DNA from: a virus
Taxonomy: Duplodnaviria; Heunggongvirae; Uroviricota; Caudoviricetes
Virus record (IMG/VR): IMGVR_UViG_2541047798_000009
Reading direction: 5' to 3' (one strand)
DNA length: 47,650 nt
Part shown: in pieces, positions 23,301 through 30,800 of the stretch
Position numbering within the stretch: the stretch's first letter is position 1
Layout of the letters: each line of letters opens with the position of its first letter
Program-made: the position numbers and the translations under genes
Notes under the pieces: generated by a model
The model's database searches: none
What the model saw: the letters and a program-made list of their open reading frames with translations, nothing else
What the model was told of the DNA's origin: nothing

Positions 23301-23860
23301 CCGTTGCCCTCATTATCGTTATTCACCACCAGTCGTGGTGGTGGTGGTACCGCAAAACGGTTAGCCGCTTTTTTCGCGGCATCACCTTTTGCCGATTTTT
23401 TACCGGCATCGCCTTTTTTATGGTGTGTGAACTGCGCCAGTCGCCAGGCCGCATCCAGTGCCAGTTTCGGATCAATGCTGAGGTTTTCCACCAGGATCTG
23501 CCCCATAGCTTTCACCGGATCGGGAAGACCATCCTCCATATATTCAATACCATGAGACATCACCGCGGGCGGTGGCATCTCCGGATTGTTTTCGTCCGGC
23601 TGTGGTATTGCAGCCGCCTCACGGCGACGGGGTTTATCCTCCTGCTCTGATTTTTTCTGCCGGTAAACAGGAACCTCATCCACCTCCACCGTTTCGCACT
23701 GTTTACGGGCTATAAACGCGAGCACCTCCGGATCTTTTGCCAGCTGCGAGCCTTTAACCCTGGCGGTCTTCGCCGAATAACCGGCGGCAATGGCTGACGC
23801 TGTTTTGTTTTTCCCGGACATGAGCGCCAGCGCAAATTTTCGTTTTTGCGTTTTCAGCAC
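23297..23860 (-). CDS. Terminase small subunit (187 aa)
   Basis: N-terminal HTH-like KTASAIAAGYSAKTARVKGSQL typical of P27-family small terminases; coupled to the large subunit (4-nt overlap). Confidence 0.75.
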   Translation of the reverse strand: MLKTQKRKFALALMSGKNKTASAIAAGYSAKTARVKGSQLAKDPEVLAFIARKQCETVEVDEVPVYRQKKSEQEDKPRRREAAAIPQPDENNPEMPPPAVMSHGIEYMEDGLPDPVKAMGQILVENLSIDPKLALDAAWRLAQFTHHKKGDAGKKSAKGDAAKKAANRFAVPPPPRLVVNNDNEGNG

Positions 23861-23929
23861 AGCCTCCTCCCGGGTCCAGAACGCACTCAGCCGGGTATGG
23901 TTCAGCCCATTTTTCCCGGCGTCTCATGC

Positions 23930-24062
23930 CGCAAATGTTAACTGCTGCCTGGTTAACATTTTCTGAAAAAGCCAGTTAACATTTTTTTCGCACAACAAAC
24001 TGAATAATAAAGATAAAAACCGCAAAAATGCCCGGGCAGCCAGTTAACATGTTAACTGCCCT
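23930..24062. promoter_or_regulatory. Candidate cos / terminase recognition region with five copies of CAGTTAACAT in both orientations
   Basis: ATGTTAACTG, GGTTAACAT, CAGTTAACAT and an 18-bp perfect palindrome CAGTTAACATGTTAACTG in the 290-bp gap between the HNH and small terminase genes. Confidence 0.5.
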
Positions 24063-24149
24063 GAAACGGGAATTTTTTCTCTGCGTGAGAGGGGGCGCGG
24101 TGTCCAAAGCGATCGTTTTTTACGCCGGATGATACCCCCCCGGGTCGGG

Positions 24150-24515
24150 TTACAGTCCGATGATGTCGTCCGCTCTGCCACTACCTCCGGACACCTCCGG
24201 CAGCGTCGGGTCCGGCATACCACCCGCCGCTTCACGAGCAGACTTTTGTCGATGGCATTCGGTACAGAGCGTCCAGAGATTCGTCTCCTCATTACCACCA
24301 CCGAACTGAAGTGCAATTCGGTGATCAAGTTCACTGTCACAGAGGTCAACCACACGACCACAGATACAGCACTGCCCGGCGTCCCTGAGCCAGATATGAC
24401 GCTTGAGGGAAACACGTGCACTGCCACTGACACGACGCTGCTCCCCCTTCAGAATATTCACCCGTCGGGTATTCAGTGTTTTGATTCTGCTCTGGAGTGT
24501 ACGAAGCTGAGCCAT
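24150..24515 (-). CDS. HNH endonuclease (121 aa)
   Basis: HNH motif ...CCICGRVVDLCDSELDHRIALQFGGGNEETNLWTLCTECHRQK; sits next to cos and terminase as in HK97-like phages. Confidence 0.85.
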   Translation of the reverse strand: MAQLRTLQSRIKTLNTRRVNILKGEQRRVSGSARVSLKRHIWLRDAGQCCICGRVVDLCDSELDHRIALQFGGGNEETNLWTLCTECHRQKSAREAAGGMPDPTLPEVSGGSGRADDIIGL

Positions 24516-28838: not shown

Positions 28839-30800
28839 TCATGCCGCGGCATCCGCGTTGTTCACTTCCACCTTCACACTGTCAATCAGCAGCGTATATG
28901 TCGCCGCCTTTGATATGCCTGTCAGTTGCAGTTTGTCCGCCGCCCCTGATGCCGGAGATTTCACCAGTGTGAACGGCGTCCCCCGTTTCTCATCCAGTAC
29001 CGGCGTCACCTGAATGCTGTTGTTTCCGGCAAACTCAAAAGCCAGTGTGTGCCATCCGTTATCAAAGACCCCGAACGTATCCAGCTTCGCATTCGGCTTC
29101 TTGTGGTGCATCGCGTTCAGGTTCGTCGCATCCGTCTGCAGGAAGAAGGACATCAGCATGTCGTTGCCTTCCTCTGCCAGCGTCACTCCCTCCGGCAGGG
29201 ACGACAACTGCCAGTAAATGCCCAGGGCAAACTGATTCGGCACCAGTGAACCCGGCAACTTAAACCGTACGCTCACACGTCCCCCCTTCTTCAGTAACTC
29301 CACTCCCTGTCCGGCTGCATCATGCTCCAGAAACCAGATGTGGTTTTCCGGTTTATTCAGTTGCAGGGCCTTACCTCCCGTAGCCCCCGCATCACTGACC
29401 ACCGCTTCAGCAATGTTTTTGTTAACATTGTCTCCGCTCGCCGGTTTGTGATAATAGCGCCAGCCCTGTGATGCCAGGTCTTCGCCGGACGCCAGCAGAC
29501 TCATCAGGGTTCGGTTACTGACCGGGGCTTCCGGCTCTCTCTCCGTACCTTCACCGGAAGGTCCGGTGGGCTTCACCGTATCAGGCTGTTTTCCGGTAAT
29601 GAATTCAGCGTTTCTCCCGGCATGCACAAGAATCGCCGTTGCCAGACGGTCGGAAATAATCCCACGACGTGCCCATGATCCAAAATGCGTTTTACGGTCA
29701 GCCGTCGTCCAGGTTTTGGCGTCCGTTCGACCACCGGCTCCGTAATACCCAATATCCGCAACATCCGGATCTTCTGACGGCTCGTTGGTACCCACATTTC
29801 GCCCGTTTTCATCCGTCATAAACGGCACAAAGAAGATTTTTTTTGCGGATTTCGTCTTGTATGCACCATACACCGCATCGTATTGCGAAGAATAAGTCTG
29901 CTTCCAGTAGTAGGTCGTGTCGCCACAAATCCAGGGAACTGATGACGGAGAGCCCCCGAGACACTGACCTCCGAATTCCGACAGGTCAGAACGATATTTT
30001 TCCACCATGGAATCAAACAGCCCCGGCTGAGTGGCGTATGCACCCTGTTTCAAATCAAACTCGCCCTGCATCCAGACCACTGCAAGCAGAATATTTTTAG
30101 GGTTGGCCTTCAGTGCGGCCTGAGTACGGGTAAGCAGGTCCTTGTACAGTGGCTTATCTACACCCCAGCGTGCCGAGGTCTCGCTTGCGCCGGTGGATTC
30201 GCTGAAGGTACCTTCATCGCCCGCCAAAAATGCAGAACCACCACGGCAGCACGGAACCAGAAGAATACCGGCATTCGCCGGAATAAACGGCAACAATTTC
30301 TTCGCGATATGTAATCCCTGCCCCACGCATCCATACTGAGCTGCGCTGGCTTTCGGGTGTGAAAACTTACTCAAATCCTGAACATCATGCAGGCAGTGGT
30401 CCGCAGGAATAATGTCATTGTAGTTACAGGACGCACCACCCGGCGTGACAGTGCTGCGACGCGCCAGCTGTTTAATACGCGGGTCCGGACGGTCATATGT
30501 CTCCGGCAGCGGAAGCCCTTCACCATACGCCATACCGTTTGACTGCCCGGCCAGGGCAACAACAAAGTAATACTCCGGGTTGCTGGTGGTGCTGATAACT
30601 GCGCCTTCTCCATCCGACGGCTTCACCACCACAGGTGTGGTGACATCACCTTCCGCCGCAATGGCCTGCATCAGGGTATAAGGCGTGATGGCCACCGGAC
30701 TGCCAAATGGCTGCCACCCCTCCTTCAGTTTTTGTGTCAGTCGTTTCGCAAGGTCTGACGGCGATGCCGCCCTGACCACGTCATAGTGTTTAAATGCCAT
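28839..30800 (-). CDS. Prophage sialate O-acetylesterase (NanS-p-like: DUF1737 N-domain plus SGNH esterase, 653 aa)
   Basis: N-terminal MAFKHYDVVRAASPSDLAKRLTQKLKEGWQPFGSPV... and size match the large esterase ORF found downstream of stx in Stx phages, as recalled. Confidence 0.8.
   Translation of the reverse strand: MAFKHYDVVRAASPSDLAKRLTQKLKEGWQPFGSPVAITPYTLMQAIAAEGDVTTPVVVKPSDGEGAVISTTSNPEYYFVVALAGQSNGMAYGEGLPLPETYDRPDPRIKQLARRSTVTPGGASCNYNDIIPADHCLHDVQDLSKFSHPKASAAQYGCVGQGLHIAKKLLPFIPANAGILLVPCCRGGSAFLAGDEGTFSESTGASETSARWGVDKPLYKDLLTRTQAALKANPKNILLAVVWMQGEFDLKQGAYATQPGLFDSMVEKYRSDLSEFGGQCLGGSPSSVPWICGDTTYYWKQTYSSQYDAVYGAYKTKSAKKIFFVPFMTDENGRNVGTNEPSEDPDVADIGYYGAGGRTDAKTWTTADRKTHFGSWARRGIISDRLATAILVHAGRNAEFITGKQPDTVKPTGPSGEGTEREPEAPVSNRTLMSLLASGEDLASQGWRYYHKPASGDNVNKNIAEAVVSDAGATGGKALQLNKPENHIWFLEHDAAGQGVELLKKGGRVSVRFKLPGSLVPNQFALGIYWQLSSLPEGVTLAEEGNDMLMSFFLQTDATNLNAMHHKKPNAKLDTFGVFDNGWHTLAFEFAGNNSIQVTPVLDEKRGTPFTLVKSPASGAADKLQLTGISKAATYTLLIDSVKVEVNNADAAA

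Follow-up and report, generated by a model that had tools for sequence, protein, structure and literature searches.

A predicted cos site in a Stx-type lambdoid prophage: a cutting core beside a candidate recognition array for the small terminase

We examined a window of 47,650 nucleotides, the IMG/VR virus record IMGVR_UViG_2541047798_000009, which is a Shiga toxin (Stx)-type lambdoid prophage of Escherichia coli. Its HNH endonuclease gene and its small terminase gene, terS, are separated by 289 bp (23861-24149, the exact interval between the two genes). With a probability of about 65%, this gap would be the cohesive-end (cos) site of the prophage, in which a cutting core stands beside an array that resembles cosB of phage lambda and that the small terminase (TerS) would recognise. 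Four observations carry the proposal: the repeats that make up the array, the conservation of these repeats, a core homologous to mapped phage ends, and the co-variation of the repeats with TerS. The features are listed in Table 1.

A predicted cutting core homologous to mapped phage ends

The 90 bp next to the HNH gene form a conserved core, the equivalent of lambda cosN with its flanks. Read in the sense of terS, it is composed of a run of seven G, TATCATCCGGCGTAAAAAA, CGATCG, CTTT, GGACAC, CGCGCCCCCT, CTCACGCAG and AGAAAAAATTCCC; the GGACAC block begins 44 nt after the stop codon of the HNH gene. These blocks stay in register in Salmonella phage SP-016, across prophages from some 20 genera of enterobacteria, and also in one Burkholderia prophage and the satellites described below. 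The core also aligns without gaps to the end-junctions of phages fLi-Aba03, Bcep176 and Xp10.

The ends of these phages are on record. According to the genome-end passage of PMC7354433, fEg-Aba01 and fLi-Aba03 have experimentally confirmed 10-nt 3' cohesive ends, CGCCCCCCAT, and the fLi-Aba03 record annotates the same 10 nt as a misc_feature. For Xp10 and Xop411, the corresponding passage of PMC2248197 gives an experimentally mapped 3' overhang of 9 nt, GGACAGTCT. The Bcep176 record has CGCACGTTCC (10 nt) at both ends, in the same alignment columns as the end predicted for the window. At the junction, fLi-Aba03 reads GGACAC, CGCCCCCCAT, CGCACGCACAAAAAAAATTCCC, and the minus strand of the window reads GGACAC, CGCGCCCCCT, CTCACGCAGAGAAAAAATTCCC. 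The terS-side nick of Xp10 falls in the same column as the predicted nick of the window. From the nick, which for the window is the predicted one, to the motif AGAAAA there are 9 nt in Xp10, Bcep176 and the window. Because the ends of fLi-Aba03, Bcep176 and Xp10 occupy these same columns, we assign to the window the putative cohesive end CGCGCCCCCT at 24090-24099, with predicted nicks between 24090 and 24089 and between 24100 and 24099.

Two flanking blocks are shared as well. The A-tract block downstream of the predicted nick is kept from the enterobacterial relatives to Xp10, Bcep176 and fLi-Aba03, regardless of the class of TerS. The G-run has 7 to 10 residues among close relatives and 5 to 10 across the phages compared. 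It lies 42 nt upstream of the terS-side nick in HK97, 45 nt upstream in Xp10 and at a similar position in Bcep176 and fLi-Aba03 (loci L213, L215, L221 and L223). It could be a termination element of the cosQ kind or an element related to HNH.

An earlier reading of the letters alone, here called the sequence-only reading, had placed a candidate cos site in this gap and had described it as built from the repeats treated below. The placement is very probably right. The construction is not: the predicted nick lies in a separate, older and much more widely conserved G/C-rich core, the repeats stand 32-155 bp away from the nick, and many relatives have only one to three copies.

Within the predicted cohesive end, three adjacent positions (equivalent to 24095-24097) vary among SP-016-type loci that otherwise are near-identical (L002, L010, L021, L066 and others). 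On the + strand the variants read GGGGG[CGA/GGC/AGC/CGC]GGTGTCC, and the surrounding core is invariant.

Database records of the relatives are of little use for locating virion ends. The contig ends of the IMG/VR relatives are scattered (window equivalents 23995, 24016, 24021, 24086 and 24106) and uninformative on this point. Records of Stx phages are ordered as prophages, and the phi330 record, which carries a generic note, is cut within terS, so that ends are not readable from them. MK510966 and PV072761 begin just before terS, apparently arbitrarily, and hold no end information. The cos site of SfI/SfV (TGCCCGCCCC, PMC3636060) was considered as a counterpart and rejected, as it belongs to a different packaging module.

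Five copies of a short repeat on the terS side

The 10-bp element CAGTTAACAT occurs four times in the gap and nowhere else in the 47.6 kb, against 0.09 occurrences expected; none of 100 shuffles reached four. Together with a fifth copy that matches at 8 of 10 positions, these copies span 124 bp (23935-24058) in both orientations. Their 8-mer core, GTTAACAT, is found five times in the gap and once elsewhere in the window, at 29421. All copies lie on the terS side of the predicted nick, at +32 to +155 bp, and terS itself starts at +230. The two copies nearest to the nick are both exact and overlap (24041-24050 on the + strand, 24049-24058 on the - strand), forming a perfect palindrome of 18 bp. 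The five-copy element in both orientations and the palindrome are thus present as the sequence-only reading had described them.

Between the proximal and the distal repeats runs an A/T-rich spacer. It contains an IHF-like site, ATTCAGTTTGTTG, at 23993-24005 on the - strand (+85 to +97), with one mismatch to WATCARNNNNTTR. A spacer block, TTTATTATTCA..TTGTT, is retained in the diverged locus L201 and in the satellite remnant L206, both of which are considered below.

We found no competing signal in this region: a search of 23600-24400 with E values up to 1 matched no Rfam family, and the gene strand has no terminator-like site within the gap. As RNA, the palindrome region folds weakly (z = -1.9). 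Operators of LexA, CRP or Fur were considered and rejected, as their half-sites, judged by eye, do not fit.

Conservation of the repeats among close relatives

A 15-mer of the neighbouring core retrieved 66 relatives of the window type from IMG/VR, which with the window amount to 46 distinct sequences. Across these, none of the 38 columns of the GTTAACAT cores varies, against 71 of the 251 other columns of the gap (Fisher one-sided p ~9e-6). The cores of the palindrome, the core of the copy at 23951-23960 and the copy at 23935-23944 are invariant throughout. The fraction of variable columns is 0.05 in the palindrome, 0.14 in the distal repeat zone, 0.20 in the core beside HNH, 0.31 in the A/T-rich spacer and 0.40 in the 70 bp beside terS. 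The dinucleotide that precedes the GTTAACAT core is free to vary, the flanking A23974 differing in at least 10 of the 46 relatives, which fits the degenerate fifth copy. Judged by this pattern of variation, the repeats are under selection.

Among 5426 complete E. coli genomes, 1244 contain the gap segment, at 2945 places in total, with a median of one and a maximum of seven per genome. The gap sequence is present in Stx1a-, Stx2a- and Stx2c-converting phages. In E. coli AR_0013 (NZ_CP032204.1 4836987-4838649, L218), a repeat segment of 173 bp is 100% identical to the window. The adjacent terL of AR_0013 is frameshifted according to RefSeq; that of the window is an intact ORF (open reading frame) of 553 codons.

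Repeat type follows the class of the small terminase

The N-terminus of the window TerS is a helix-turn-helix DNA-binding domain of the SF6/SPP1 type, as judged by Pfam PF03592 and the family profile. PF03592 is the sole Pfam family detected in this protein. The family profile matches the SF6 small terminase with its DNA-binding domain (3ZQP, 2CMP) and 4ZC3.

On the function of the repeats, comparison between loci supplies the strongest evidence. Two classes of TerS can be told apart by their N-terminal motifs, and each goes with its own repeat. Class A (MLT.QKRKFA.A...KGSQL), to which the window type belongs, has GTTAAC or GTAAAC in 24 of 26 loci and GTTACAC in none. Class B (..KK[KR]FA[DS]A..PTE..KG[W/C]QL) has AAAAGTTACAC in all four groups examined, in 1, 2 or 4 copies upstream of terS. 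In fLi-Aba03, whose TerS is 30% identical to that of the window, three copies of AAGTTAAA stand at +32 to +63 from the mapped end.

L201 is of class A (TerS 63% identical) and has six GTTAAC, against 0.41 expected. L206 is a class-B satellite remnant with AlpA and TerS, and its array has 5 copies against 0.46 expected. Their cores are near-identical and their spacers homologous, and GTTAAC positions of the one are replaced by GTTACAC in the other. In the palindrome of L201 both flanks have changed symmetrically (GTGGTTAACATGTTAACCAC), so that the two-fold symmetry is kept. The repeats have multiplied independently in the window (5 copies), in L201 (6) and in L206 (5).

Three of the four class-B loci, as well as L219, show no TerL, HNH or portal gene. 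L219 (E. coli GCA_012987925.1, 3446-11944) is an island of 8-11 kb with an integrase, an AAA_25 replication protein, TerS and a capsid-family protein, and it carries the same core as the window with repeats of its own.

L219 is one of several small integrated elements of this kind (L219, L204/L205, L206/L207, L210/L211), in which an integrase, an AAA_25 or D5-type replication protein, TerS and a capsid-family protein occur together. They have the cos core of the window but GTTACAC repeats, and no TerL, HNH or portal gene. Their TerS, which was seen in 244 blocks of the collection, is 45% identical to that of the window and is similar to the window-type TerS in its C-terminal half. By their gene content and core, these elements look like satellites of the phage group of the window.

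Satellites without HNH and TerL change repeats and TerS on a constant core, which marks TerS as the partner that changes with the repeats. The sequence-only reading had taken the repeats for recognition elements, a very plausible view, with reference to the cooperation of HNH with terminase at cos; here the comparative evidence points to the small terminase instead. That HNH, TerL or a host protein reads the repeats as genuine packaging signals, TerS having no part in it, is in our view unlikely. The HNH gene is indeed a direct neighbour, and cos cleavage in systems of the HK97 type requires an HNH protein (cited in PMC11331095). In complete phages, moreover, everything co-varies: the HNH protein of the window is closer to that of class-A SP-016 (70% identity) than to that of a class-B Hafnia prophage (65%), and TerL likewise (83% vs 64%). 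The satellites separate what complete phages keep together. L219, L204/L205, L210 and the remnant L206 have TerS but neither HNH nor TerL, and place their own repeat type on a class-A core. Moreover, it is in TerS that a DNA-binding domain can be recognised.

Possible origin of the array from an ancestral terS start

Enterobacterial loci with a shorter gap were found by searching genome contigs with a TerS alignment; a single TerS as query gave none. In SP-016 (TerS 49% identical) and in prophages from about 20 enterobacterial genera, the gap measures only about 106 bp. There the HNH stop is followed by the G-run, GTAAACATCGATCGC, CTGGACACCGCGCCCCCTCTCACGCACAGAAAAAATTCCCC and GGAGGG, and then by TGTAAAC-ATG-TTA-ACA, which is the start of terS.

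The palindrome of the window is homologous to this start region (GGAGGG-TGTAAAC-ATG-TTA-ACA). The old ribosome-binding site decayed in the lineage of the window, from GGAGGG to TCAGGG, and the GTG start now in use is separated from the old one by about 183 bp of additional DNA with three further copies of the repeat. Many short-gap relatives have one to three copies, one of them overlapping the terS start codon. Often an extra GTAAACAT is found on the HNH side of the core, 67 bp from the other copy; the window has no such upstream copy and reads GTAAAAAAC there. Since relatives function with one to three copies and the window is without the upstream one, the five-copy array is a lineage-specific elaboration.

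This ancestry makes room for a different function. The repeats might control expression, either as an operator or translational site of terS retained from the ancestral start, as a promoter, or as part of a 24-codon ORF, MLTGCPGIFAVFIFIIQFVVRKKC (24050 down to 23976, - strand). The homology of the palindrome to the ribosome-binding site and start codon of relatives speaks for it. The ORF runs from the ATG in the middle of the palindrome into the following repeat, where it stops (TGT-TAA). Of 46 relatives, 45 keep it intact, and its length is unchanged in the diverged L201. Two repeats also form a weak promoter-like match on the + strand. We nevertheless judge this function improbable. The present start of terS is 190 bp away and has its own GGAGG, while the old ribosome-binding site has decayed. 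Differences in the ORF peptide among the listed variants are all amino-acid changes, a T-rich strand gives hydrophobic peptides in any frame, and class-B arrays do without the ORF. It is probably a by-product of the fixed spacing of the repeats, which explains its retention equally well. The promoter-like match (9/12) is antisense and not above shuffles. Control of expression would also leave unexplained the three further copies and the array of fLi-Aba03 at +32 to +63 from a mapped end.

Alternatively, the extra copies could be functionless relics, duplications of the terS start left by the rearrangement of about 183 bp. The short-gap relatives, which pass from the core straight to terS, are compatible with this, the window-type gap being longer by just that amount. 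It is nevertheless unlikely: no column of the GTTAACAT cores varies, against 28% of the remaining columns of the gap, arrays appropriate to the class arose in several lineages, and the flank change in L201 is symmetric. The similarity from copy to copy also stops after about 13 nt, so these are not duplicated terS 5' ends.

A miniature mobile element, with CAGTTAACAT as terminal inverted repeats, is a very improbable account of the 183-bp segment: inverted copies (23935-23944 and 24041-24050) do flank about 100 bp, but the copy number of the segment in E. coli agrees with that of lambdoid prophages, every place listed lies in intergenic DNA without annotation, and the segment adjoins the core in the 66 IMG/VR relatives (retrieved via the core pattern) and at the one E. 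coli place inspected.

Proposed organisation of the site

The cos site we propose would have two modules. The first, the cutting core (24060-24149), would be common to a whole clade of phages in which an HNH gene accompanies a TerL of this type. TerL and HNH most likely nick it in a staggered manner, leaving the 10-nt 3' end CGCGCCCCCT. The second, the five GTTAACAT elements (23935-24058), would lie downstream in the direction of packaging, in the interval between nick and terS. It would comprise the palindromic pair, a bendable A/T-rich spacer with the IHF-like site, and the three distal copies. The helix-turn-helix domains of an oligomeric TerS most likely bind this array. Such binding would mark the DNA as that of the phage and position TerL and HNH on the core, in the manner of the R elements of lambda cosB. 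Packaging would proceed to lower window coordinates, through terS and terL to the head genes. The exact nicks, the binding of TerS, any part played by IHF and the way in which HNH and TerL share the work are what we infer from the comparisons above.

Several points weigh against this organisation. In the literature outside subscription journals, we found no paper that maps virion ends in the Stx/BP-4795 group. The bare hexamer GTTAAC is common in the window (16 occurrences vs about 8 expected); the distinctive signal is the extended motif with its clustering, not the hexamer alone. IHF-like matches at the stringency used number 71 in the window against 61 expected, which is not significant. 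In the short-gap relatives, ATGTTAAC is the Met-Leu-Thr start of terS, and its conservation is partly coding. The five-copy array is not essential to the family, given the one to three copies of many relatives. L206 retains one GTTAAC copy among its GTTACAC repeats. The co-variation of repeats and TerS is confounded by linkage, as the repeats adjoin the 5' end of terS and would be passed on together with it; what linkage does not account for is limited to the repeated multiplication and the in-place conversion. Finally, the HK97 small terminase binds one 15-bp site that includes an A-tract at +15 to +29, the DNA being threaded through the ring (PMC11331095). This only structurally solved TerS with an HNH partner thus reads a single site and not an array, but it is unrelated to the TerS of the window.

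A broader proposal can be put forward tentatively, at somewhat less than even odds. Packaging specificity in this clade of HNH/TerL phages would be a two-part code, in which a universal core is combined with a replaceable repeat array (GTTAAC, GTTACAC or AAGTTAAA) matched to the DNA-binding domain of TerS. Satellites lacking TerL and HNH would live off Stx-type prophages and their kin: they would retain the core, while their repeats would be converted in place to the type that their own TerS reads. The array of the window would have grown from the old terS start (ATG-TTA-AC) after a new start had arisen 190 bp away.

A cutting site with terminase-binding repeats is in principle already known from lambda. 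For the Stx/BP-4795 group, we found no publication that describes a cos site or repeats, and for the palindrome sequence no match, in the literature outside subscription journals. Knowledge of the cut site and the repeats would let the genome ends of these prophages be defined correctly. It would also allow one to predict which terminase packages which prophages and satellites, and to design cos plasmids and packaging-deficient mutants for work on Shiga-toxin gene transfer. The apparent exchange of repeats and TerS on a constant core provides a model, open to direct test, for the redirection of packaging by satellites where the cos system depends on HNH.

Genes around the gap

The region is 93-98% identical to Stx-converting and related lambdoid phages, among them BP-4795, 2851, 1717, YYZ-2008 and many Stx1a, Stx2a and Stx2c prophages. 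On the minus strand the order is lysozyme, Rz, a small TonB_C protein, HNH, the gap, terS, terL, a protease-capsid fusion and portal. The packaging genes thus sit downstream of the lysis genes, all on one strand. Besides the values for SP-016 and the Hafnia prophage given above, TerL is 57% identical to that of Bcep176, 52% to that of fLi-Aba03, 47% to that of Xp10 and 23% to HK97 gp2.

The prohead protease and the major capsid protein are encoded in one ORF, and the portal gene follows this fusion instead of preceding it. In the O157 'PPompW' prophages (LC567818, LC567822 and others), ISEc20 of the IS110 family is annotated between the HNH gene and the cos core; their alignment to the window ends at the C-run just past the HNH stop, at about 24138.

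Table 1. Features of the predicted cos site and neighbouring genes, in window coordinates. Positions with a plus sign count from the predicted nick towards terS.
Feature	Coordinates	Strand	Remarks
Conserved cos core, equivalent of lambda cosN with flanks	24060..24149	-	90 bp beside HNH
G7 run (C7 on + strand)	24135..24141	-	45 nt upstream of predicted terS-side nick
Predicted 10-nt 3' cohesive end, 5'-CGCGCCCCCT-3' (+ strand AGGGGGCGCG)	24090..24099	-	predicted by homology
A-tract block AGAGAAAAAATTCCC	24068..24082	-	+8 to +22
Proximal pair, perfect 18-bp palindrome CAGTTAACATGTTAACTG	24041..24058		+32 to +49
A/T-rich spacer between proximal and distal repeats	23987..24038	-	
Distal repeat CAGTTAACAT (terS-sense strand: ATGTTAACTG)	23973..23982	+	+108 to +117
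Distal degenerate repeat TGGTTAACAT	23951..23960	+	8/10 match; +130 to +139
Distal repeat CAGTTAACAT, opposite orientation	23935..23944	-	+146 to +155
Lysozyme	26892-26359	-	
Rz	26022-25555	-	
HNH endonuclease, 121 aa	24150..24515	-	Pfam PF01844, E 4.8e-7
terS, small terminase, 187 aa	23297..23860	-	GTG start; Pfam PF03592, residues 7-57
terL, large terminase, 553 aa	21639..23300	-	Pfam PF03354 + PF20441
Prohead protease-capsid fusion, 645 aa	19638-21575	-	Peptidase_S78 + Phage_capsid
Portal	18062-19426	-	

Comparison with known packaging systems

The closest phages with known ends are fEg-Aba01 and fLi-Aba02/03, Bcep176, and Xp10 and Xop411. In all of them HNH is upstream of cos and the core matches that of the window column for column. 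In fLi-Aba03, three direct repeats of AAGTTAAA stand in the interval between the mapped end and terS. In Xp10, two tandem copies of GGCCATTTCC lie about 40-60 nt from the mapped left end (L214 40-62), at the position of the GTTAAC-type repeats of the window. The repeat sequences and the TerS proteins of these phages nevertheless differ from those of the window, and in Xp10 terS is not adjacent to cos. The genome-end passages of PMC7354433 and PMC2248197 make no mention of repeats.

The label HK97-like, used at first for this locus, holds loosely, for the order HNH gene, cos, terS, terL. HK97 also has a 10-nt 3' cohesive end, as predicted for the window, a G-run about 42-45 nt upstream of the cut, a G/C-rich end (..GACCGCCGCCAAA at the cut) and an A/T tract at most 30 nt downstream. 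The proteins do not follow. HK97 gp1 is unrelated to the window TerS (BLASTP E = 0.98) and has no PF03592 match, TerL gp2 is only 23% identical, and HNH gp74 can barely be aligned to the HNH of the window. Read by eye, the 50-nt gap between the left end and terS of HK97 contains no GTTAACAT-like array.

In the SPP1/SF6 pac system, the small terminase (G1P) is likewise a PF03592 protein with an N-terminal helix-turn-helix. G1P of SPP1 binds repeated boxes on both sides of the cut. The short-gap relatives resemble this, their core being flanked on either side by a copy of GTAAACAT, at a distance of 67 bp from one another. Packaging in SPP1 and SF6 is by headful, whereas the TerL clade and the core homology of the window point to defined cohesive ends.

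The order of elements is like that of lambda, where the nick site is followed on the terS side by short elements in both orientations, with an A/T-rich bendable segment after the first copy. The repeats of lambda cosB run in both directions, with an IHF site (I1) amid the R elements. Within cosQ-cosN-cosB, R3, I1, R2 and R1 lie upstream of Nu1, and the repeats are sites of the small terminase (PMC6739421). Lambda differs in its 12-nt 5' overhangs and in having no HNH partner, against a predicted 10-nt 3' end and an adjacent HNH gene in the window. Its TerS is of the gpNu1 family and not of PF03592, the repeat sequences are unrelated, and the IHF match of the window is weak.

A precedent for the class-B satellites is EcCICFT073, whose cos1 has the cosN and cosQ of the helper and a different cosB, read by a complex of Rpp and TerS, with the result that packaging is redirected (PMC6739421). 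The class-B satellites likewise keep the cutting core with different repeats. The EcCICFT073 type relies on helpers of the lambda/phi80 type and on the Rpp adaptor, whereas the class-B satellites carry a full TerS homologue of their own.

Taken with these systems, the element of the window would be a lambda-cosB-like array beside a 3' core of the HK97/Xp10 type, read by a TerS of the SPP1/SF6 family. The family of its TerS and the predicted polarity of its end set it apart from the lambda family; the unrelated TerS, the 23% identity of TerL and the barely alignable HNH set it apart from the strict HK97 family.

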